A stretch of 64,000 nucleotides of DNA from Candidatus Acidiferrum sp. Its GTDB lineage: Bacteria > Verrucomicrobiota > Verrucomicrobiia > Limisphaerales > UBA11358. The stretch is taken from contig DATJOW010000095.1 in assembly GCA_035506715.1 (NCBI GenBank), forward strand, positions 5,393 through 69,392, in the 5' to 3' direction. The notes beneath the pieces are model-generated. The model did no database searches. It had not been told where the DNA came from and saw only the letters and a program-made list of their open reading frames with translations. Positions 15,349 through 64,000 of the stretch are shown piece by piece (position 1 is the stretch's first letter; every line of letters begins with the position of its first letter). The position numbers and the translations under genes are program-made.

Positions 15349-17109
15349 ATGAATGAAGAACCCAAAAGCATCTGGAAAAAATCGTTGACCGGCTGGTGCA
15401 TCCTGTCCGTTGTCGCGTTGCTTCTGGCTTTCGCGGGATTTCTAGCGGCGCTGGCGAGCAGTCTATTTCATTTCGACAACAGCAAACTTTTCGGCCTGTC
15501 TTTTTTTGTCAACTGGCTGATTCTCACCATTGGCGCGGCAGCCACCTTTCTGGTGTTGATCCTGCTCTTCCGCTTCATCCGGTGGCTGTATTGTTGGCGT
15601 AACTTCAAGCGATTTCTTTTCGCGGTCGCGTGTCTGGCCACACTGATCGCGTTGTTCTACGCCGAGGAAGACTGGCGCGGCAAACATGCCTGGGAAACAT
15701 TCAAACGCGAGTGGGAGGCCAAAGGCGAACGTTTCGATCGCGCCAGCGTGGTTCCGCCGCCGGTGCCGGACGACCAGAATTTTGCGCTGACGCCGATTGT
15801 CTTTACCAGTTACGGCCAATTGCTGACGCGCGACGGGAAATTCATTCCCTGGGCTGAACGCGACACCAACTTCGTCAACCGGCTGCAAGTGAACATTGGT
15901 GGCCCCCAGCCCTGGCCGACCAATGGTGATTGGCGCCTGGCGCGCGTCAGCGATTTAAGCGCCTGGCAACAGTATTATCGGGCCCTGGCCGCCAAAACGA
16001 ATCAGTTCCCCGTCCCGCCCCAACCGGTATCGCCCGCCGCCGATGTCCTCTTCGCGTTGGGCAAGTACGATTCAACGATCGAGGAGCTGCGGCAAGCCGG
16101 CCAACTGCCTGATTCACGTTTTCCGCTGGAATATGACAAGGATGACCCGGCGGCGATGCTGTTGCCGCACCTAGCGCCGCTGAAAAATTGCGCCCAGGTT
16201 TTACAATTGCGCGCCTTGGCGGAATTGCAGAACGGCCAAAGCGACCGGGCGCTGGCCGACGTAAAACTCATTTTGCGCCTGGCGGATTCGCTCCGCTCGG
16301 AGCCCATTCTGATTTCGCAGCTGGTCCGCGCTGCACTGGTGAATCTCGCGCTCCAGCCGATCTGGGAGGGGCTCCGGCAACGCCAATGGTCGGACGCCCA
16401 ATTGATCGAACTGGGAAATGACCTGGCGAAGACAGATTTTTTGGCTGCCAGCGAACTTGCCTTGCGCGGAGAACGCATCTGGGGTGTTGAAATCATAGAA
16501 TATTTGCGACATTTGACTTACCGGGAAAGGCTGCGCACCCTTTCCGCTTTTGGCAGCAATCTCAAACTCGAGGACGAAATTTTCCTTTGTCTCGGCCCGG
16601 CTGGATGGTTTGACCAAAGCGAACTCCGAATTAGTCGTTTCCTTCTCCGGCACTATTCGCCGGTGGTAAATCTTGACCGGCAAATAGTTTCTCCTGTTGC
16701 TGTGCGAAACGCGGATGAGGCATTCGGCGCGGAAGTTGGCCATTCCGGCAATGGTAATTTTTTTGAGCGATTATTACTGTCGGCCGCGGGCAACGTAGTG
16801 GAGAAATTAGCCTGCGGGCAAAATGCGGTGAACCTGGCGCGTACGGCCTGTGCGTTGGAGCGTTACCGCCTCGCGCATGGCCAATATCCGGAATCGCTGG
16901 ACGCGCTGGTGCCGCAATTCATCGCCCAGCCGCTGCATGATGTCATCAACGGCCAACCGCTGCATTATCGACGCACGAATGATGGCCAATTCGTCCTTTA
17001 TTCCGTCGGCTGGAACGAGACGGATGACGGCGGGGAAGTCGGCTTCACCAAACAAGGCGGTCTGGACATCAGCACCGGTGACTGGGTCTGGCAGTATCCG
17101 CAGAAATAA
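15349..17109 (+). CDS. Membrane protein, unknown function, with a GspG-like C-terminal motif
   Basis: Three N-terminal TM helices. The C-terminus LHYRRTNDGQFVLYSVGWNETDDGGEV resembles the conserved C-terminal sheet of type II secretion pseudopilins. Confidence 0.5.
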   Translation: MNEEPKSIWKKSLTGWCILSVVALLLAFAGFLAALASSLFHFDNSKLFGLSFFVNWLILTIGAAATFLVLILLFRFIRWLYCWRNFKRFLFAVACLATLIALFYAEEDWRGKHAWETFKREWEAKGERFDRASVVPPPVPDDQNFALTPIVFTSYGQLLTRDGKFIPWAERDTNFVNRLQVNIGGPQPWPTNGDWRLARVSDLSAWQQYYRALAAKTNQFPVPPQPVSPAADVLFALGKYDSTIEELRQAGQLPDSRFPLEYDKDDPAAMLLPHLAPLKNCAQVLQLRALAELQNGQSDRALADVKLILRLADSLRSEPILISQLVRAALVNLALQPIWEGLRQRQWSDAQLIELGNDLAKTDFLAASELALRGERIWGVEIIEYLRHLTYRERLRTLSAFGSNLKLEDEIFLCLGPAGWFDQSELRISRFLLRHYSPVVNLDRQIVSPVAVRNADEAFGAEVGHSGNGNFFERLLLSAAGNVVEKLACGQNAVNLARTACALERYRLAHGQYPESLDALVPQFIAQPLHDVINGQPLHYRRTNDGQFVLYSVGWNETDDGGEVGFTKQGGLDISTGDWVWQYPQK

Positions 17110-17110
17110 A

Positions 17111-17245
17111 AGCTCCAAGCTCCAACATCCAAGCTCCAGAGAAATCTCAAGCCTCAAGCGCCAAACCAAAACCATCATCGCCGCGTTTTCTTGTTTGGCT
17201 GTTGGAATTTCTCTGGAGCTTGGTGCCTGGAATTTGGGGGTTTTT
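17111..17245. repeat. Long imperfect inverted repeat built from period-7 units
   Basis: Left arm: AGCTCCA AGCTCCA ACATCCA AGCTCCA GAGAAAT CTCAAGC CTCAAGC GCCAAAC. The 17-nt core CCAAGCTCCAGAGAAAT (17129-17145) is perfectly complementary to 17207-17223. The element ends in GGGGGTTTTT. Confidence 0.75.
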
Positions 17246-21565: not shown

Positions 21566-21588
21566 TCTGGGCCAAGACCAAACGACCA

Positions 21589-21620
21589 CCCCCTTCCGCT
21601 AAAATCGGGAGGGGGTTTTT
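21589..21620 (+). terminator. Rho-independent terminator of the porin gene
   Basis: CCCCCTTCCG-ctaaaat-CGGGAGGGGG followed by TTTTT. Confidence 0.75.
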
Positions 21621-21715
21621 ATTTGCATTTACGATTTACGATTTACGATTTACGATTGCTCCGGGGCTCCGAAACGGTGGGAAAATCACAAATCATCAAT
21701 CGTAAATCATAAATG
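21621..21715 (+). repeat. Heptamer-array element: (ATTTACG)x4-ATTGC, 22-nt spacer, inverted array GGAAAAT CACAAAT CATCAAT CGTAAAT CATAAAT
   Basis: Read directly. The last unit plus G forms TAAATG, which contains the metF start (21713). It is homologous to the element at 36343..36419. Confidence 0.8.
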
Positions 21716-22606
21716 CCCGTTCATTTCATTCGCGACATTTACGCAGCCAAAGGGGCGGCCAAACAGCCGGTCATCTCTTTTGAATTTTTCCCTCCTAAAA
21801 CAGAGGAAGGGGACCGCGCCCTGCTGGAACGCCAGGTCCCGGCCCTGTTGGCGGCCCGGCCGGATTTTTGTTCCGTCACCTACGGCGCCGGCGGCAGCAC
21901 GCGCGACAAGACGCTGATGATTGTGGACCGCATTCAGCGGCAATACGGGTTGACGACGCTGGCGCATCTGACCTGTGTGGGCCACACCCGGGCGCAGGTG
22001 CAGGAGCTCCTGGAGAAAATCCGTGGGTTGGGCTGTAAAAATATCCTGGCCTTGCGCGGCGATCCTCCGGCGGGCGGCGTTTTTCAGCCGGCTCCCGGCG
22101 GTTTCGAATTCGCCGGGCAACTGGTCCGGCTCATCCGTGACGCGGGTGACTTCTCCATCGGGGTCGCCGGCTTTCCCGAGGGGCACCTTGCCTGTCCGGA
22201 CGGCAAGCAGGCCGACTGGTGGCACTTGCGCGAAAAGGTGGAGGCTGGCGCGGACTTTGTGCTGACCCAGCTGTTCTTTGACAACGCGGATTATTTTGAA
22301 TTTCGGGAGTACGTTGGCGGCCGCCTGGGGGTCCGCGTGCCATTGGTCCCGGGAATTGTGCCCATCCTGAGCGCCGGCCAAATCACAAAATTCATCCAGG
22401 TCTGTGGCGCCAAAATCCCGCCGCCGCTGCGCACCCGGCTTGATCAATTGGCGGAGGACGATGAGGCCGCCGCTGAATTTGGCATCGAGTACGCCACCCG
22501 CCAGTGCCAGGATTTGTTGCGGGCAGGCGTGCCCGGGTTGCATTTTTACACGCTGAACAAATCGCGGTCCACCGTCCAGGTGCTGAAGAACCTCGGTCTG
22601 GCCTGA
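21713..22606 (+). CDS. metF: 5,10-methylenetetrahydrofolate reductase MetF
   Basis: ISFEFFPPKT, VTYGAGGSTR, LTCVGH, TQLFFD motifs. 297 aa. Confidence 0.9.
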   Translation: MPVHFIRDIYAAKGAAKQPVISFEFFPPKTEEGDRALLERQVPALLAARPDFCSVTYGAGGSTRDKTLMIVDRIQRQYGLTTLAHLTCVGHTRAQVQELLEKIRGLGCKNILALRGDPPAGGVFQPAPGGFEFAGQLVRLIRDAGDFSIGVAGFPEGHLACPDGKQADWWHLREKVEAGADFVLTQLFFDNADYFEFREYVGGRLGVRVPLVPGIVPILSAGQITKFIQVCGAKIPPPLRTRLDQLAEDDEAAAEFGIEYATRQCQDLLRAGVPGLHFYTLNKSRSTVQVLKNLGLA

Positions 22607-31985: not shown

Positions 31986-32783
31986 CTAATCTTCTTCACC
32001 CCGCTTGAGCGCGCCGCCCATGTCCGCGCACACGCCCCGCCGGGCTTCGGCAACAAAATTAAGCATGTTTATTGCCACGGGAGAGGCGAATTCCTTCCGC
32101 GCGGCTTCGACGGCCGCCCGCAAATTCTGTCCGCTGCGGAACAAGGCGTGGTACAGCCGCTTCAATTCCAGCCGCTGTTCGGCTGTGACGCCGGCCCGCC
32201 GCAGGCCGATGATGTTCAACCCGCAAATTTCGTTGATGCGCATTGCGATGGTGAACGGCGGCACATCCTGGCTGATGGCCGAGCCGCCTTGCATCAGCGC
32301 CAACGTGCCCACCCGGCAGAACTGGTGGATGAGGCAGTTACCGGAAATGAACGCGCCATCTTGCACGACGGCATGTCCCGCCACCATCGCGCCGCCCCCC
32401 AGGATCACGTGATCGCCCACCACTACATTGTGCCCGACGTGACAATGCGGAGTCAGAAAATTGTGCGAGCCGATGACCGTTTCCCCCTCCAGCGTGGCGG
32501 CGCAGTTCACCGTGACATGTTCGCGAAAGCGGTTGTGGTCGCCGATGCGCAGTCGCGTCGGCTCGCCTTTGTATTTCACGTCCACCGGCTCATCGCCAAT
32601 GACACAGCCCGCGTAAAACCGATTGTGCGCGCCAGCGGTCGTCTGCCCCGTGAGATAAACGAGCGGCCCGACGACGCAATGCGCGCCCAGCGCCACGCCT
32701 TCGTCAATCACCGCCTGAGCGCCGACCTCAACGGTTGAATCCAGTTTTGCTTTCGGATGAATGACGGCTGTTGGATGAATCAC
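31986..32783 (-). CDS. lpxA: Acyl-ACP--UDP-N-acetylglucosamine O-acyltransferase LpxA
   Basis: MIHPTAVIHPKAKL..., hexapeptide repeats, ...GDHNRFREHVTV...GSHNFLTPHCHVGHN..., and a C-terminal helical domain (GLNIIGLRRAG). Confidence 0.9.
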   Translation of the reverse strand: MIHPTAVIHPKAKLDSTVEVGAQAVIDEGVALGAHCVVGPLVYLTGQTTAGAHNRFYAGCVIGDEPVDVKYKGEPTRLRIGDHNRFREHVTVNCAATLEGETVIGSHNFLTPHCHVGHNVVVGDHVILGGGAMVAGHAVVQDGAFISGNCLIHQFCRVGTLALMQGGSAISQDVPPFTIAMRINEICGLNIIGLRRAGVTAEQRLELKRLYHALFRSGQNLRAAVEAARKEFASPVAINMLNFVAEARRGVCADMGGALKRGEED

Positions 32784-32930
32784 AGACTAAAAGTGACGCA
32801 TTCGCCCCGGTTGCCAAGTTCAAAATGCCGCCCCAACGCGAAGAGGCTTTGTCCGGATGGATTTGCATGGTAAATTGCACGGGCCGAAATGAGCGTCACC
32901 ATCCAGTCTGAACCGGCAGGAGAGCAAACT

Positions 32931-32958
32931 CCGCCATCCGCCATCCGCCATCCGCCCT
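32931..32958. repeat. Heptamer tandem array (CCGCCAT)x3 + CCGCCCT inside the U32 N-terminus
   Basis: Read directly. Translates as PPSAIRHPP. Confidence 0.7.
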
Positions 32959-33822
32959 TGCCGGAGTTGCTCGCGCCCGCTGGGGACTGGGATTGCGTAC
33001 GCGCCGCGGTCGAGAACGGCGCCGATGCGATTTATTTCGGCCTCGAAAAATTCAACGCCCGGATGCGGGCGCAGAACTTCACCTCGGCCGATCTGCCTTG
33101 CTTGATGGATTTTCTGCACCGGCGCGGCGTGCGCGGCTATGTCACTCTCAACACGCTGGTTTTTGAGCAGGAACTCGCCGACGCCGAAAAATATTTGCGC
33201 ACGATGATCGCCGCCGGGGTGGACGCCGTCGTGGTCCAGGATGTGGGCATCTGCCGGCTGATCCGGCGGCTTTCGCCCGATTTACCGATTCACGCTTCGA
33301 CCCAGATGACCATCACCAGCGCCGCCGGCGTGGATTTCGCCCGCGACCTCGGCTGCAGCCTGGTCGTGCTCGCCCGCGAATGTTCCATCAAGGAAATCGA
33401 GAAAATCCAAGCCATACAAGGCAAGGCGGGCCGTCTCTTGCCCGCCGTATCCTCCTTTACCAACGACGGCGCGATAGCGACATCGCGCCCCACCATTCTC
33501 CCCCTGGAAGTTTTTGTCCACGGCGCTCTCTGCGTTGCTTACTCGGGCCAATGCCTGACCAGCGAGGCGCTCGGTGGTCGCTCGGCCAACCGCGGCGAAT
33601 GCGCCCAAGCCTGCCGCATGCCTTACGAACTCCTGTCCGACGGGCAACTCGTGCCGCTGGGTGACCGGAAATATCTGCTGAGCCCGCAGGACCTGGCCGG
33701 GCTGGACGTGTTGCCGGAATTGATTCGAGCGGGCGTGGCCTCGCTGAAAATCGAGGGCCGGCTCAAATCCCCCGAATACGTGGCGAATATCACGCGGATT
33801 TACCGCCAAGCGCTGGATAATT

Positions 33823-33890
33823 GCGGAATGCAGAATGCGGAATGTGAAATGCTATCTGCCTCAGCCAGTCCGAAATCCGAAATCCGAAAT
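33823..33890. repeat. Paired heptamer arrays GCGGAAT GCAGAAT GCGGAAT GTGAAAT / 19-nt spacer / (CCGAAAT)x3, at the U32 frameshift
   Basis: Read directly. Total length is 68 nt, which is not a multiple of 3. The left arm has 4 units and the right arm 3. Confidence 0.8.
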
Positions 33891-34649
33891 ATGAGATGGA
33901 GATGGCTTTCTCCCGCGGCTTGCACACCGGCTGGTTCGGCGGCACCAACAATCAGCAACTCGTACACGCCCGCTTCGGAAAAAAACGCGGGGTCTATCTC
34001 GGTGAAGTGAAAAAGGTTTTGCGCGACGCGGTTGTGGTCAAACTGAAAGGCCCGTTGAAGCCGGGCGACGGCGTGGTGTTTGACGCCGGCAAGCCGGCGG
34101 AACCCGAGGAGGGCGGGCGGGTTTACGAAATCCGAAAGGCAAGGCGCGGTGTCCCTACCGCGCCGAAAGCACGGCTCGCTACGGAGGGCGAGCCCCACCA
34201 GGTCGAACTCCATTTCGGCCGCGGCGACATCCATTTCGCGCGCGTTCACGTCGGCGACAAACTGTGGAAGACCAGCGACCCGGAACTGGACCGACGCCTC
34301 CGCCAAAGCTTCGCCGGTGCTACGCCCAGATTCCAGCGACCGATTGAAATCGAAGTGCACGGCATCGCCGGCAAGGCGCTGACCCTGATTGCCCATGATG
34401 AATTCGGCAACATTGCCAAAGTGGAATCATCCATGCCGCTGGCCCGGGCGGATAAACATCCGCTCACGACGGACCGTTTGCGCGAACAATTGGGCCGGTT
34501 GGGGGGCACGCCGTTCCGGCTCGGTGGGTTAAAAAACCTTTTGTCGGGTGACGTGCTGCTGCCGGTCAGCGAGCTGAATCGCTTGCGCCGCGAAATCGTC
34601 GGCGAACTGGAAAGGCGGCGCACCCAGCCTAAGCGTTGGACGCTTTCTG

Positions 34650-34733
34650 ATTGCCGGTTGCCGGTTGCCGATTGCCGATTGAGCGACGATGCGGGCGCAG
34701 CCAAAAATCCGCAATCCGCAATCCGCAATCCGC
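34650..34733. repeat. Paired inverted heptamer arrays ATTGCCG GTTGCCG GTTGCCG ATTGCCG / 28-nt spacer / (AATCCGC)x4, in frame inside the U32 gene
   Basis: 84 nt = 28 codons. Translates as DCRLPVADCRLSDDAGAAKNPQSAIRNPQ. The arms are complementary at 5-6 of 7 positions per unit. Confidence 0.8.
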
Positions 34734-34873
34734 AATTGATTGTTCTGGTCCGCAACCTGCCCCAACTCGAAGCCGCGCTGAAATGCGGGGTGACAACCGT
34801 CTATTGCGAATTTGAAGACCCCAAGAAATACCGCGACGCGGTCACGCTGTTCCACGCGGCCTTCGATCGCCAA

Positions 34874-34930
34874 GGTAGGCCGGGCGGTCCTCTGCCCGCC
34901 GGCGGCGCGCACGGAGTGACGCGCCCTACC
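34874..34930. repeat. REP-like nested palindrome (57 nt), in frame inside the U32 gene
   Basis: Outer stem GGTAGG/CCTACC. Inner hairpin GGCGCG-cacggagtga-CGCGCC plus an imperfect CCGGGCGG/CCCGCCGG hairpin. Translates as GRPGGPLPAGGAHGVTRPT. Confidence 0.65.
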
Positions 34931-35627
34931 ATCTGGGTTGCGCCTCCAAGAATTTTCAAGCCGGGCGAGGACTGGACGCTGGAACAGGTGCGCTCCGGCA
35001 ACGCCGATGGTTATTTAATCCGCAATTACGATCACTTGAAATTCTTCGCGAACGACCGGCGCGTCGGTGATTACTCGCTCAACATCGCCAACCGGCTGGC
35101 GGCGGATTATTTCAAGAACCCATGCGGCCTGGAGCGGGTGACGGCGAGCTACGATTTGAATTTCCAGCAGCTCGAAGCGTTGTTGACCGCCGCGCCGCCC
35201 GAGTGGTTCGAGGTGACCATCCACCAGCACATGCCGATGTTTCACATGGAGCATTGCGTGTTCTGCGCGTTCCTTTCCACCGGCACGGACTTCCGGAACT
35301 GCGGCCGCCCCTGCGACGTGCACGACGTGAAGCTGCGCGACCGCATGGGCGCGGAGCATCCGGTGAAGGCCGACGTCGGCTGCCGCAACACGGTGTTCAA
35401 CGCGCTGGCCCAGACCGGCGCGGAATATGTGTCGCGGATGATCGAACTGGGCGTGCGACATTTCCGCGTGGAATTCCTCAACGAAGCGCCGGAACAGGTG
35501 ATGCAAACCATTGCCAAGTATCATCAGCTATTGCGCGGTGAAATCACCGGCACGCAGCTCTGGCGCAAATTGAAACTGTTCAACCAGCTCGGCGTCACCC
35601 GGGGGCAAATCGGGAAGTAGAACAGGC

Positions 35628-36338
35628 TTACTGGTAGAAGTATCCCAACTCGCGCAGCGATGCGTAGTCCTTCGGCCGGTCCGGTGTGGCACGGCCGATG
35701 ATGATGTGGTCCAGCACCTCGATTTTCAAAAGCTGGCCGGCGCGGATTAAATCGCGCGTCACCTTGATGTCCGCCTCGCTGGGCGTGGGGTCGCCGCTGG
35801 GATGGTTGTGCACCAGCACAATGGCCGCCGCGTTGGCCGCGATGGCCGACCGGAACACCTCGCGCGGATGCACCAGGATGGTGTCGAGCGTGCCGTGCGA
35901 AATGTCCTCCACCCGGATCAGCCGCCGCCGCGTGTTCAACAGGAGCGCCTGGAAGGTTTCGACGCTTTTCACCAGGTTTTGCTCGCGCAGCAGCCGGACG
36001 ATGGCCTCCGGATTGTCGAGCACCGGCGATTCGCGCTGCAAATCCTTGGCCATCGCGCGGGCCAGCGCAAACGCGGCCACCAGCGTCACCGCCTTGTCGC
36101 GCCCGATGCCCTTGACGGTCTGCAAATCGTCCACCGAAGTTTGGGCCAATGACTGGAGAGTGCCGAATTTGTGGAGCAGTTGCCGGCCGATTTCGACGGC
36201 GTTGGCGCCTTTCAGGCCGGTGCGCAGCAGGATGGCGACCAGTTCGGCGTGCGTCAGAGCGTCCGGCCCGCGCTCGGCCAACCGTTCGCGCGGCCGTTCG
36301 CTCAGCGGCTGGTCCTTCAGTCGCAGCCCCTCTGACAT
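35628..36338 (-). CDS. radC: RadC-family JAB-domain protein
   Basis: N-terminal HhH region (ERLAERGPDALTHAELVAILLRTG) and the C-terminal JAMM motif LVHNHPSGDPTPSEAD. Confidence 0.9.
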   Translation of the reverse strand: MSEGLRLKDQPLSERPRERLAERGPDALTHAELVAILLRTGLKGANAVEIGRQLLHKFGTLQSLAQTSVDDLQTVKGIGRDKAVTLVAAFALARAMAKDLQRESPVLDNPEAIVRLLREQNLVKSVETFQALLLNTRRRLIRVEDISHGTLDTILVHPREVFRSAIAANAAAIVLVHNHPSGDPTPSEADIKVTRDLIRAGQLLKIEVLDHIIIGRATPDRPKDYASLRELGYFYQ

Positions 36339-36342
36339 GGTG

Positions 36343-36419
36343 ATTTACGATTTACGATTTACAATTTACGATTGCAACTCAATTTCAACGCCGCCCGTGT
36401 CAAGCGTCAATCGTAAATG
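36343..36419 (+). repeat. Second copy of the heptamer-array element: ATTTACG ATTTACG ATTTACA ATTTACG ATTGC, spacer, CGTCAAT CGTAAAT
   Basis: Shares (ATTTACG)n-ATTGC and the 12-mer TCAATCGTAAAT with 21621..21715. Its TAAATG contains the start of the AddA-like gene (36417). The left end begins 4 nt from the radC start codon. Confidence 0.8.
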
Positions 36420-39400
36420 GCATCATCGAACAAAGACAAAAACCCTCTGACCGAGGCGCAGCGGGAAGCCGTGAAAGCGCGCGGCAACGTGCTCGTCATG
36501 GCCGGCGCCGGCACCGGCAAAACCCACACTCTGGTCGAGCGCTGCCTGCATTGCCTTTGCGAGGAGCGGCCGCCCGCGTCGCTCGAGGAAATCGTCGTCG
36601 TTACCTTCACCGAAGCCGCCGCCGCCGAGATGCGCCAGCGCCTGCGCGAGCGGCTGGAGGAAAAACTCAAGGCGGAGCCCGACGAACCGCGCTGGGTGGA
36701 ACAGCTCACCCTCTTCGACACGGCCCACATTGGCACGCTCCACAGCTTCTGTCTTAAGCTCATCCGCGAACATTTCCATGCCCTCGGCCTCGATCCGCAG
36801 CTGGCCGTGCTCGACGAGGGTGAGGCCCGGCTGCTCGCCGAGGAAACGCTCGAAGCCGAATTGCAGGGCCACTACGCCGGCAAAAGCGAGCCGGCCAAAG
36901 CCGTTCAGCAATTGATCCAGGTTTACGGGGGCGGGCGTGACGAGGCCATCCGCCGGCTGGTCCTGCGACTGCACCACTACGCCCAAACCCGGCCCGATGC
37001 CGACGGCTGGCTGGCGCGGCAGATTGAAAAATTTTCGGTCCCTACCCCGGACGAGTGGCAAAAGTGGCTGCTCGCGGCGATTCAGGATTGGCGCGACGAA
37101 TGGCTGCCGGCTCTGGCAGCCCTTGGAACGCCGAACTCCAATTCGGCACGTTTCCGGGCGGATGACCTTCAAGGCGAACCGGAGTTCGGCGCTCCACCGG
37201 CAAACGAGAAAGCCGCCGAAATGGAGGGTGTTCTCCGGTTGTTGCCCGCTGATTTTTCGCGCGAAGCCGCCGCTGAAATTCTGGCGCAAATCATCGCCGC
37301 CGATGGTCAATGGCCGGCAAAACGCAAAACCGTCTTGCGCAAACCGCTGGCCGGCTTTTTTGATGACGCCCGTTTTCTCCTCTCCCTCGCGGCGGTTAAA
37401 AACGGCGCCGATCCGCTGGCTGAAGACTGGGCCCCGATCCGGAGCCACATGGACGCATTGCTGCGCCTGACTCAGGGGTTTGCCGCCCGGTTCGCGGCCC
37501 GCAAGCGCGAGGAGGGCGTCCTGGATTTCCACGACCTGGAACAATTCGCCCTGAAACTGCTCTGGGATTCTTCGACGGGCCGGCCGAGCGCCATCGCCGG
37601 CCGCTGGCGGGAAAAAATCCGGTTTGTCTTCGTGGACGAATACCAGGATATCAACGCCGCGCAGGATAAAATCATCCAAGCGTTGAGCCGGGAGGGATCC
37701 GCGGCGAATCGCTTCCTGGTTGGCGATGTGAAACAAAGCATTTACCGGTTCCGGCTGGCTGACCCGGAAATTTTCCGCACCTACGCTCAAACCTGGCGCG
37801 GCAAAAAGGGCCGGACCATCCCGCTCACCGAAAACTTTCGCAGCCGCGAGGGCTTGCTCGATTTCGTCAATGCGGTCTTCCAGCCGCTCCTGCGCGAGGA
37901 CATCGGCGGCATTGGCTATGACGCCGAGGCGCAATTGCAGTTTGGCGCGCCGCAGTCGCGCACTCCGCTTGGCACCGCCACCGATCCGGCGCCGCGCGCC
38001 GAATTGCTTCTGCGCCTCAAGTCCGGCCGCGATGACACGGCGTCGGGCGACAGCGATGGCGACGACGAACTCGCGGATTTGCTGGACACGGAGAAGGAGG
38101 CGCGCTGGCTGGCGCAGCGGCTGAAAGAATTGCACGAGGCCGGGCATAGAATTGTCTGGGACGAGAAACAACAGGTTTCCCGTCCAGCGGAATGGCGCGA
38201 CATGGCGGTGTTGTTGCGGGCGCCGGCCGGCAAAGCGGAAGTTTATGCGAAGGAATTCCAGGGCGCCGGGGTGCCGCTGGTCGTCGCGCGCGGCGGGTTC
38301 TATGACAGCAGCGAAATTCTGGATTTGCTGAGCCTGCTGCAATTGCTTGACAACCCTTTGCAGGACGTGCCGGTCATTGCGGTGCTGCGGTCGCCGCTGG
38401 TGGGGCTGTCGCTTGACGAGCTTGCTCAAATCCGGCTGGCGGCCAGGGGCCATTTCTGGACGGCGCTGAACCGAGCGCGGGTTGCGGATTGCGGATTACG
38501 GAAGGAAACGACGCACAAAATCGGAAAATTTCTGGAGCGGTTCCCGCGCTGGCGGCGACTGGCGCGGCAGGGATCGCTGTCACAGTGTCTGGAAAGCGTG
38601 CTGGGGGAAACGTTTTACGCCGACTGGCTGGCCGCCCGGCCGCGCGGAGCGCAGCGGCGGGCCAAGATTGAGCGCCTGCTGGCGCTGACGCAAAAGTTCG
38701 ATCAATTGCCGCGGCAGGGGCTGTTCCGCTTCCTGCAATTTATCGAAGCGCAGCGCGAGACCGGGGCTGAACCGGAGGTCGGCGCGGTTCCCGGCGAAGA
38801 TGCAGTGCGGCTGATGAGCATCCACCAGAGCAAGGGTTTGGAGTTCCCGATCGTCGCGCTGGCCGACCTCGCAAAACCGTTCAACACCCAGGAGCTTCGC
38901 AGTGAAATCATTTTGGATGGAACCTACGGCCTTTGCCCAATTGTCCAGTCCCGGAATCGGATGTCAGGTTATCCCAGCCTGCCGCACTGGCTGGCACGGT
39001 CGCATCAGCGCCGCGAACAATGGGGCGAGGAATTGCGCCTGCTCTACGTCGCCCTGACCCGAGCCCGCGATTTTCTCCTCCTGACCGGCACCGTTTCCAA
39101 AAAGAAAGGGGAGATGCTGGGGACCGGGTCCCCGCCCTTGACGACCCCCGCCATCCTCGCGGCCAACAGTTATGCTGACTGGCTCGGCTTATGGTTGGGC
39201 GGACAGCCGGCTCCAAATGGGATCGGCGGCAACTTGCCGTATTTGCGCTGGCGGCTGGCGGAGGATGCCGAATTGCTGGTGGAATCACCGGGAGCAGCGG
39301 TGGAATCAGGACCGCCGGCTTGGGACCCGCAAACCGGGCCGGCCCTGCAAAAGAGGCTGGCCTGGGATTATCCGTTCGCCGCAGCCACCCGCCGCGCGGC

Positions 39401-62084: not shown

Positions 62085-64000
62085 ATGAAAAAGACCGAGA
62101 AAACTATCAAACCCAACAGTCTTTTCCGGCGGCTGGCCGGGACTTTGACAGGTGTTCTGCTGTGGCTAGGCGTCCTGCCTCTGGCCGCGCTCGGCCAGGC
62201 CAACTACGCCACCCCCTACACCTTCATCACCATCGCCGGGAAAAGCTTCTATGGTAGCGCGGACGGGACGAATGGCGCCGCGCAGTTCGCTTTTCCTTTC
62301 GGCACGGCGGTGGACAGCGCGGGCAATATCTTCGTGGCGGACGCAGCGAACTGCACGATTCGGGAAGTGACGCCGGTCGGAACCAATTGGGTAGTGACGA
62401 CCTTGGTCGGACAGGCGGGCAGCGCCGGCACCAATGACGGGACGGGGAACGCCGCGCGGTTCAACGGCCCTGGCGGTGTGGCCGTGGACACGAGCGGCAA
62501 CGTCTATGTGGCGGACACAGGCAACCACACGATCCGAAAAGTGACGCCGGTGGGCGCGAATTGGGTGGTGACGACCCTGGCCGGACTGGGTGGCAGTGCC
62601 GGCAGCGCGAACGGGACGGGGAGTGCCGCCCGGTTTTATTTTCCTCAGGACGTGGCGGTGGACAGCGCGGACAACGTGTATGTGGCGGACTCACTCAACG
62701 ACACCATCCGCAAAGTGACACCAGCGGGGGCAGTGACGACCCTGGCCGGACTGGCGTTCACTGAAGGCACGTCCGACGGAACGGGGAGCGCCGCCCGGTT
62801 CCACTTTCCTCTTGGCGTCACGGTGGATAGCGGGGGCAACGTCTATGTGGCCGACACAGCCAACGCCACCATCCGCAAAGTGACGTCAGCGGGTGTGGTG
62901 ACGACCTGGGCGGGACTGGCGGGCTATAGAGGAACCAACGACGGCACGGGGAACGCCGCGCGGTTTAGCGGGGCGGTTGGCGTGACAGTGGACAACGCCG
63001 GCAACCTCTATGTCGCGGATTACATGAACAATACGATTCGACAAGTGACCCCGGCGCGGCTGGTGACGACCCTAGCCGGCGGGCCGGGCTACAATGCAGG
63101 GAGCGCGGACGGGACGGGGAATGAGGCGCAGTTTTCTTATCCTTATGGCGTGGCGGTGGACAGCGCAGGCAACGTCTACGTGGCGGACACAGGCAACGAC
63201 ACGATCCGGGAAATAATGCCGGTCGGACCCAATTGGGTGGTGACGACGATCGCCGGACACCCAGGCGTTGCCGGCAGCGCGAACGGGACTGGAACCGCCG
63301 CGCGGTTTAACGGGCCTTACGACGTGGCGGTGGACAGTCTGGGCAACCTTTATGTGGCGGACGATTTGAACGACACGATCCGGAAAGTGACGCCGGTCGG
63401 ACCTAATTGGGTGGTGACGACGATTGCCGGATACCCAGGGGTTGACGGCAGCGCGAACGGGACGAACAGCGCCGCGCGGTTTAATTATCCTCAGGGTGTG
63501 GCGGTGGACAACGCGGGTAATCTCTATGTGGCGGATCAAAACAACTCCACCATTCGGGAGGTGGCGCCGGTCGGAACCAATTGGGTGGTGACGACGATTG
63601 CGGGATCCCCAGGTCGTCCTGGCAGCGCGGACGGGACGAACAACGCCGCGCGGTTTTATTATCCTAAGGGCGTGGCGGTGGACACGAACGGCAATGTCTA
63701 TGTGGCGGACCAATTCAACGACACGATCCGAGAAATAACGCCGGTTGGAACGAATTGGGTGGTGACGACTCTGGCCGGACTGGCAGGCGATCATGCCAGC
63801 GCGGACGGGACGAACAGTGCCGCGCGGTTTGCTTATCCTCAGGGTGTGGCGGTGGACAGCGCAGGCAATCTCTATGTGGCGGATGGTGACAACTTCTCAA
63901 TCCGCAAAATGACGCCGGTCGGAACCAATTGGGTAGTGACGACCCTCGCTGGTCAGTCGGGCTATTTTGCCGAGATAGACGGGACGGGGAGCGCCGCGCG
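62085..64000 (+). CDS. Secreted NHL-repeat beta-propeller protein (3' end beyond the window)
   Basis: Open-ended, so absent from the ORF track. ATG at 62085, signal peptide ...LLWLGVLPLAALGQA. At least ten units of xGxADGTGxAARFxxPxGVAVDxxGNxYVADxxNxTIRKVTPxGxxWVVTTLAG. All listed minus-strand ORFs here are shadows. Confidence 0.85.
   Translation, partial: MKKTEKTIKPNSLFRRLAGTLTGVLLWLGVLPLAALGQANYATPYTFITIAGKSFYGSADGTNGAAQFAFPFGTAVDSAGNIFVADAANCTIREVTPVGTNWVVTTLVGQAGSAGTNDGTGNAARFNGPGGVAVDTSGNVYVADTGNHTIRKVTPVGANWVVTTLAGLGGSAGSANGTGSAARFYFPQDVAVDSADNVYVADSLNDTIRKVTPAGAVTTLAGLAFTEGTSDGTGSAARFHFPLGVTVDSGGNVYVADTANATIRKVTSAGVVTTWAGLAGYRGTNDGTGNAARFSGAVGVTVDNAGNLYVADYMNNTIRQVTPARLVTTLAGGPGYNAGSADGTGNEAQFSYPYGVAVDSAGNVYVADTGNDTIREIMPVGPNWVVTTIAGHPGVAGSANGTGTAARFNGPYDVAVDSLGNLYVADDLNDTIRKVTPVGPNWVVTTIAGYPGVDGSANGTNSAARFNYPQGVAVDNAGNLYVADQNNSTIREVAPVGTNWVVTTIAGSPGRPGSADGTNNAARFYYPKGVAVDTNGNVYVADQFNDTIREITPVGTNWVVTTLAGLAGDHASADGTNSAARFAYPQGVAVDSAGNLYVADGDNFSIRKMTPVGTNWVVTTLAGQSGYFAEIDGTGSAA

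Follow-up and report, generated by a model that had tools for sequence, protein, structure and literature searches.

The radC/helicase spacer of a Limisphaerales-type Verrucomicrobiota contig belongs to a lineage-wide family of heptanucleotide arrays

In a 64,000-nt stretch of bacterial DNA (contig DATJOW010000095.1 of GenBank assembly GCA_035506715.1, positions 5,393 to 69,392; contig k141_2815590 of ENA assembly ERZ27256510; hereafter the window), the divergently oriented radC gene and a gene for a UvrD-type helicase are separated by 78 nt, from the radC ATG at 36338 (minus strand) to the helicase ATG at 36417 (plus strand). This spacer (36339-36416) carries tandem 7-nt units and is the subject of the present analysis. 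The spacer and its flanking genes comprise the following features:

35628-36338, minus strand: radC, 236 aa, with Pfam domains RadC and UPF0758_N and without a Shine-Dalgarno sequence
36342-36373, minus strand: left array (GATTTAC)x4.6, in radC sense CAAUCGUAAAUUGUAAAUCGUAAAUCGUAAAUC, ending 3 nt 5' of the radC ATG; 71% A+T
36374-36397, no strand: unique spacer (loop) between the arms, 24 nt, without heptamer periodicity and not kept in sister species
36398-36418, plus strand: right arm of three degenerate inverted units, TGTCAAG CGTCAAT CGTAAAT, found by repeat search and absent from the sister species L001 and L003
36417-40067, plus strand: UvrD-type helicase with C-terminal PD-(D/E)XK nuclease domain, AddA-like, 1216 aa, with Pfam domains UvrD-helicase, UvrD_C and PDDEXK_1 and without a Shine-Dalgarno sequence

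The starts of both genes were fixed by nearby upstream in-frame stops and by N-terminal alignment with orthologues; an in-frame TAA (36414-36416) stands directly 5' of the helicase ATG. By their orientation both genes are monocistronic, and each therefore requires its own promoter. A preliminary description of this DNA had argued that both promoters must lie inside or overlap the repeat, or else in the neighbouring coding sequences, and this logic is sound for spacers of 78 nt in the window, 60 nt in L003 and 47 nt in L001 (32 nt when counted from an in-frame ATG further upstream).

Read directly, the left part of the spacer consists of GGT, three GATTTAC units, AATTTAC and GATTG; CAACTCAATTTCAACGCCGCCCG forms the middle and is followed by TGTCAAG, CGTCAAT and CGTAA, which run into the helicase ATG. 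Tandem Repeats Finder placed the left array at 36342-36373 (period 7, 4.6 copies, 92% matches, score 57). Its edge lies 3 nt from the radC CAT (36336-36338), or 4 nt in the ATTTACG register, the distance given in the preliminary description. Repeat searches detected two inverted pairs, one perfect (36364-36374 with 36408-36418, 11/11) and one of 21 nt with 86% complementarity (36343-36363 with 36398-36418). Together these pairs define the right arm as three degenerate units, not merely 12 nt, and the final two bases of this arm coincide with the first two of the helicase start codon (A and T), which the arm thus does reach, as had been proposed. The array accounts for about 53 of the 78 nt, and 24 nt remain as unique spacer. 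The view of the spacer as one heptamer-array element is thus confirmed; that it consists 'almost wholly' of the element was slightly generous but fair. Allowing at most two mismatches, GATTTACGATTTAC occurs nine times against 0.14 expected, and none of 100 shuffles reached nine. The heptamer pattern of the spacer is far beyond chance.

Heptanucleotide microsatellite arrays form a lineage-wide family in Limisphaerales-type Verrucomicrobiota, and the spacer is one of its copies. In this genome and in relatives, members of the family occupy gene leaders and, in frame, linkers inside proteins. The window holds ~12 period-7 arrays of ~4 units. Arrays with at least three near-perfect copies numbered six for period 7 and none for periods 5, 6 and 8-12, and perfect self-match runs of at least 10 numbered seven for period 7 and zero or one for every other period from 4 to 12. 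Array density was 94/Mb in the window (6 period-7 arrays) and 87/Mb in close relatives (17 in 196 kb), neither set having any array of periods 8-12, compared with 15/Mb in 1.5 Mb of other phyla. Copy number peaks near four units across loci and species, each array being ~28-32 nt long, and most arrays are paired, 15-40 nt apart, as imperfect inverted repeats. The units are diverse, with at least eight in 64 kb (GATTTAC, TCCGCCA, TCCGAAA, GATTGCC, AATCCGC, GCGGATT, AAGCTCC and others), and the genes that bear or adjoin arrays include metF, a U32 peptidase gene, the helicase gene and radC. A GATT core shared among the window units was considered and dropped, as the relatives' units CGTCACC, CTTTGGA and AAGCTCC break it.

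The spacer array shares with the heptanucleotide simple sequence repeat (SSR) class a head-to-tail 7-nt unit, an excess of period 7 and an association with many unrelated genes. No single unit dominates the window as TAACTGA, GGGAATC and GGACCGG do in their genomes; a dominant unit is, however, a trait of these named examples and not of the general class definition. With the spacer array, the known heptanucleotide-repeat class gains a member in a new lineage, distinct from those described by its multiple units, inverted pairing and ~4 copies. Among intergenic SSRs, heptamers are over-represented compared with other unit lengths, as GGGAATC repeats in Xanthomonas and as short tandemly repeated repetitive (STRR) heptamers in Nostoc and Calothrix (PMC4692102); for a general excess of heptamer SSRs that article cites Mrazek et al. 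2007. Like the arrays described here, the Xanthomonas and Nostoc repeats include some inverted pairs, and related species keep them between the same genes with variable length and sequence. They are, however, G-rich, G-quadruplex-capable and found in other lineages, whereas the arrays of the window are A/T-rich or mixed.

A sister of the spacer element precedes metF:

21625-21716, plus strand: (ATTTACG)x4.4 + ATTG, loop and inverted degenerate arm; arms of 33 nt, 85% complementary; metF starts at 21713

The right arm of this element ends in the UAA-AUG of metF, so that here, as at the helicase gene, the ATG lies inside the arm. The two elements have a common unit and common arm ends (ATTTACGATTG ... 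CAATCGTAAAT) and sizes of 92 nt (metF) and 77 nt (radC/helicase). The metF element lies between the terminator of a porin gene and metF, is identical in sample ERZ27256600 and has an RNA fold with z = -2.4. Since the same element stands before metF, it has no link to DNA repair, and the special tie to two DNA-repair genes suggested in the preliminary description does not hold. A DNA-repair regulon with a LexA-type operator was likewise dropped as an explanation, given the identical element before metF and the related arrays in unrelated open reading frames (ORFs). Immediately 5' of the metF element, at 21588-21616 and 3' of the porin-like gene, we observed a clean intrinsic-terminator-like hairpin (ACCCCCTTCCG ... 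CGGGAGGGGGT, then TTTTTATTT).

Three to four of the ~12 arrays of the window abut a start codon, compared with ~0.07-0.34 expected. All of these are in AAUC-sense orientation and none is accompanied by a Shine-Dalgarno sequence. A search of other loci for (CGTAAAT)2 returned four sites only, one of which, in the L003 radC orthologue, is followed by a start codon. The helicase ORF of the window also holds an in-frame heptamer array (38477-38502). In the helicase orthologues of L137 (375-1480) and L166 (18442-19568), three to four intra-ORF arrays of ~4 units each were seen, with the units ATTTACG/ATTTGCG, GAAAACT, CTTTGGA (twice), CAGAGGT, GTTCGGA and ATCCGCC.

Further arrays lie in the neighbouring U32 peptidase (DUF3656) gene (32889/32958-35620):

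32930-32956, plus strand: (TCCGCCA)x3.9, directly 5' of the TTG (32958) of the conserved U32 start region LPELLAPAG
33822-33852, plus strand: degenerate GCGGAAT-type array of 4.4 units in the first U32 linker, partner of the array at 33869
33869-33890, plus strand: (TCCGAAA)x3; 4 units in other samples
34649-34736, plus strand: second U32 linker; in-frame pair (GATTGCC)x4.7 + (AATCCGC)x4.4, together an inverted repeat in which each unit has a single C-C mismatch

The array at 33869, ~2.5 kb from the radC/helicase array, provides direct evidence of slippage. When the window was compared with L081, L083 or L170 (for L170, 20.7 kb with 20 substitutions), the sole indel was one TCCGAAA unit at 33868/33869. 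Four units yield a single U32 ORF of 912 aa; the window's three units split it into ORFs of 373 aa and 537 aa. The three-unit allele is recorded for the window's contig only, and two other samples carry four units. We conclude that 7-nt slippage is real in this array family, as a one-unit change between strains.

The arrays map to three hot-spot linkers that vary among 23 U32 orthologues of 74-81% identity (query residues ~10-22, 310-335 and 588-617 in the alignment of orthologues P0001-P0115). At one of these positions different lineages carry different arrays: NCGMRNAECGI is encoded by (GCGGAAT)n, NCGLRIADCGI by (GCGGATT)n and LRFTNDDLR...RKSEIVNHKYEM by (ACGATTT)n...(CGTAAAT)n, the last unit being that found at radC. 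In L167, perfect orthologous U32 arrays extend over 29 and 31 nt despite a protein identity of only ~80%, which calls for continuing homogenisation or selection. In P0014, a 7-aa gap in a U32 linker equals three heptamer units and would fit slippage filtered by the reading frame. Other U32 orthologues carry unrelated palindromic inserts in their linkers that resemble repetitive extragenic palindromic (REP) sequences, translated as GQASSLS..DRQDACPT, SSRGNEAHSS..LLTSAAT and SEGRVPRAPN..GLAELAPP. Rickettsia palindromic elements and REP-type palindromes are likewise short hairpin repeats tolerated in frame in protein linkers. These elements have a conserved full-length consensus and are thought to be mobile, whereas the arrays described here share the 7-nt periodicity only and have unrelated loops.

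The spacer itself behaved differently from the U32 array. Identical RadC proteins were found on four contigs, and DNA was compared for three of these, from different samples (L081, JGI 3300032829; L082; L083, ERZ27256505). Positions 36339-36416 were identical in all three, against a background of 0 substitutions in 6,711 nt for L081 and 3 substitutions in 4,106 nt for L083. The RadC cluster at 90% identity contains a single member. The source metagenome-assembled genome of the window's RadC (HTY87470.1) is labelled 'Candidatus Acidoferrum sp.' (Acidobacteriota) at NCBI. RadC and the neighbouring U32 peptidase have close homologues only in Verrucomicrobiota (Verrucomicrobiia, Limisphaerales), and for this reason the label is probably due to a binning error of the contig.

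The sister species L001 and L003, whose RadC is 77-78% identical to that of the window, retain the helicase/radC synteny. The 40 nt 5' of radC align without gaps among the window, L001 and L003, and four units are present throughout, degenerate in L001 and L003. In radC sense, the window reads CGTAAAT TGTAAAT CGTAAAT CGTAAAT CACC-ATG and L003 reads CGTAAGG CGGAAAT CGTAAAT GGTAAAC CATC-ATG. As a yardstick for these 40 nt, radC identity at fourfold-degenerate sites is 57-64% among the three: L001 and L003 match at 37 of 40 positions vs 63% at fourfold sites (P = 2e-5), and the window and L003 at 30 of 40 vs 57% (P = 0.014). The helicase-side arm is not conserved in L001 or L003. RadC scans of metagenomes and genomes detected the radC/helicase synteny only in these two species, and two more distant syntenic relatives, L166 and L167, were found via the U32 gene. 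The genes of RadC relatives with 66-84% identity lie next to other genes and lack an array. Spacer length is thus fixed in the strain sample and the four radC-proximal units are fixed across the sister species, and the array next to radC seems to be under constraint. The variation in array length at the spacer that had been anticipated in the preliminary description did not appear in the three assemblies or, with four ungapped units in each, in the two sister species.

We examined the spacer for RNA-level signals. Rfam 15 covariance models gave no match at E ≤ 1 on either strand of 32500-39000. Pairing of the arms could cover the helicase AUG; that hairpin, however, is statistically ordinary and not conserved, and folding of the radC and helicase leaders gave hairpins no better than those of shuffled sequences (z = -1.05 and +0.63). 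A structured-RNA explanation of the radC/helicase spacer was dropped after this unremarkable folding.

Our favoured explanation, in which we place roughly even confidence, is that the array is fixed rather than switching and would act as a combined core-promoter and short-leader module. Arrays of this family would arise and remain homogeneous through 7-nt slippage; orthologous arrays keep their position and length while the unit sequence changes. The palindromic layout would hand both divergent genes one and the same A/U-rich sense tract of (C/U)GU(A/C)AAU repeats, which would run directly into the AUG without a Shine-Dalgarno sequence. Such an unstructured A/U-rich tract would be a start region of the type used by Shine-Dalgarno-free initiation. 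The TAACTGA heptamers of Beggiatoaceae, placed just 5' of start codons, offer a precedent (PMC4679880). On the radC side, the invariant CGTAAAT, 19-25 nt 5' of the ATG, might serve as a weak -10 element, and TTGCAA (TTTCCA in L001 and L003), 17 nt further upstream, as a weak -35 element. This pair would yield a near-leaderless radC mRNA with a leader of ~4 nt, a proposal that we make with low confidence.

Several observations weigh against a promoter-leader module. A scan of 36100-36700 for sigma-70 consensus promoters and terminators found none, and the proposed -35 and -10 elements match the consensus at only 4/6 and 3/6 positions. Genes that lack a Shine-Dalgarno sequence at their start are frequent in this genome anyway (~10 of the 13 called). 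The window and L001 match at 28 of the 40 nt 5' of radC, which is not significant (P = 0.27). L166 and L167 have spacers of 339 and 127 nt, respectively, without an array, so that the array is not required for expressing radC and the helicase gene. The strains were compared as consensus assemblies, in which low-frequency length variants are hidden. Lastly, much of the array family may be without a role at the RNA or promoter level, given the unrelated units and the arrays inside ORFs.

Some of these points favour the closest competitor, that the spacer is a neutral or selfish by-product, i.e. a slippage-born microsatellite hairpin tolerated in a permissive spacer with no role in radC or helicase expression. 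The array-less spacers of L166 and L167 agree with this explanation, as do the variation of units between loci, the simple translation of in-frame linker arrays, the ordinary folding of the leaders and the lack of conservation of the right arm. The heptamer excess, moreover, is ascribed to polymerase slippage in the statement of Mrazek 2007 quoted in PMC4692102. Neutrality accounts poorly, however, for the radC-proximal 40 nt, which L001 and L003 keep far above the level of fourfold sites and without indels, for the abutment of start codons above chance and for copy numbers that cluster tightly near four instead of following a geometric distribution. We therefore regard a purely neutral spacer as possible but doubtful.

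The preliminary description had called the spacer the classic architecture of slipped-strand phase variation, in which gain or loss of 7 nt would alter the promoter or leader geometry of both repair genes as a switch or rheostat. The best-studied parallel is the (ATCTTTC)n tract in the 5' untranslated region (5'-UTR) of Haemophilus influenzae hmw1A and hmw2A, with 11-63 copies that vary between and within strains (PMC12721329). As at hmw, a tandem SSR with a 7-nt unit lies in promoter or leader space, between promoter and start codon, the repeat supplies the left arm of a hairpin whose right arm lies downstream, and copy number is the proposed control variable; the array necessarily overlaps promoter or leader space here, and hmw shows that expression can be modulated by a heptamer SSR and a right arm that pairs with it (PMC12721329). 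The slippage part of the claim also stood, since the perfect sister array 2.5 kb away shifts by one unit between otherwise identical strains. A switch at the spacer itself is unsupported. Its sequence is identical in all independent assemblies compared, four units are kept across species, and its 4.6 copies, one of them imperfect, are far from the long tracts of hmw. In hmw, furthermore, the right arm is G-rich and non-repeat, the RNA is processed by RNase III and the gene encodes an adhesin, whereas the spacer has a right arm of inverted units and adjoins housekeeping repair genes, with the same element before metF. A phase-variable switch is therefore unlikely, and the radC/helicase spacer should not carry such an annotation for DNA-repair genes.

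The concentration of copy number near four across loci and species, together with the common sense orientation of start-codon arrays, would also be expected if the array formed sites for a protein (of the cold-shock-domain or S1-type OB-fold kind, for example) that binds single-stranded RNA or DNA, each domain reading ~7 nt and four units making one footprint of a protein or oligomer for post-transcriptional control. For the TAACTGA repeats found in marine Beggiatoaceae, Cyanobacteria and Bacteroidetes, which occur in 2-6 copies just 5' of start codons and mostly in forward orientation, the same candidate proteins have been suggested (PMC4679880). Those repeats resemble the present arrays in lying a few nt 5' of starts, where they replace a recognisable ribosome-binding site, and in adjoining unrelated genes, with some copies inside ORFs; they differ in having one dominant unit per genome and no reported inverted partners, compared with many units and inverted pairs in another phylum here. 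In Geobacter metallireducens, 49 'four tandem heptanucleotide' elements (Gmet_H4##, consensus GGACCGG) are found within and between genes, alongside five-heptamer MTYCTGA sites (PMC2700814). They are similar to the present arrays in their four to five tandem heptamers and tens of copies within and between genes, and the Geobacter locus L073 contains a pair of arrays 42 nt apart. In contrast to the arrays described here, they have a GC-rich single consensus, a putative annotation as regulatory RNA or as sites of a global regulator, and no reported adjacency to start codons. Against a sequence-specific reader stands the great diversity of units (GATTTAC, TCCGCCA, AAGCTCC, CGTCACC, CTTTGGA and others), and coding arrays are constrained by the reading frame, not by a footprint, which makes a binding-site function quite improbable.

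We give similarly little credence to a broader scheme in which the ~4-unit arrays, mostly in inverted pairs, would be a maintained lineage-wide Limisphaerales-type system. A protein that is oligomeric or has several OB folds would read modules of 28-32 nt at start codons as single strands, active 7-nt slippage would keep the modules homogeneous, and in-ORF arrays would double as frameshift contingency switches of housekeeping genes, as in the three- and four-unit U32 alleles.

A mobile palindrome, resembling REP sequences or miniature inverted-repeat transposable elements and inserted both at radC/helicase and before metF, would explain two copies of 77 and 92 nt with the same arms (inverted repeats, 86% complementary over 21 nt and 85% over 33 nt, respectively) and would have a parallel in the other REP-like inserts of U32 linkers, but it is very improbable, because inspection shows unrelated loops in the 21625 and 36342 copies, no target-site duplication is evident at their flanks (the array-less spacers of L166 and L167 being unalignable), L001 and L003 have the left array without the right arm, the unit sequence evolves in place at orthologous sites and no transposase lies nearby.

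The over-representation of heptamers in bacteria has been known since 2007 and has no accepted mechanism or function. With ~90 arrays/Mb, this verrucomicrobial lineage provides a dense natural data set, and its traits (~4 units, inverted pairs, start-codon and in-frame sites, in-place change of units and a one-unit slippage caught between strains) open the question 'why seven?' to comparative genomics and to population data at read level.

Three further observations were made elsewhere in the window. In the 20.7-kb comparison with ERZ27256505, 17 of the 20 substitutions fell into a 400-nt patch (16599-16998), many of them spaced by 3 nt. The patch lies inside a plus-strand ORF of 586 aa (~15349-17109) without a Pfam hit, and its pattern suggests a segment imported by recombination. 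Directly 3' of a stop codon, within 17100-17225, an (AAGCTCC)x4 array forms the 5' arm of a long hairpin in which AGCTCCAGAGAAAT pairs with ATTTCTCTGGAGCT ~60 nt downstream (minimum free energy -43.6 kcal/mol, z = -5.3; none of 200 shuffles as good). At 62306-64000, reaching the end of the window, tandem repeats of 165-174 nt (348-nt super-unit; ~5-10 copies, 73-80% identity) look like a gene for a repeat-domain protein.

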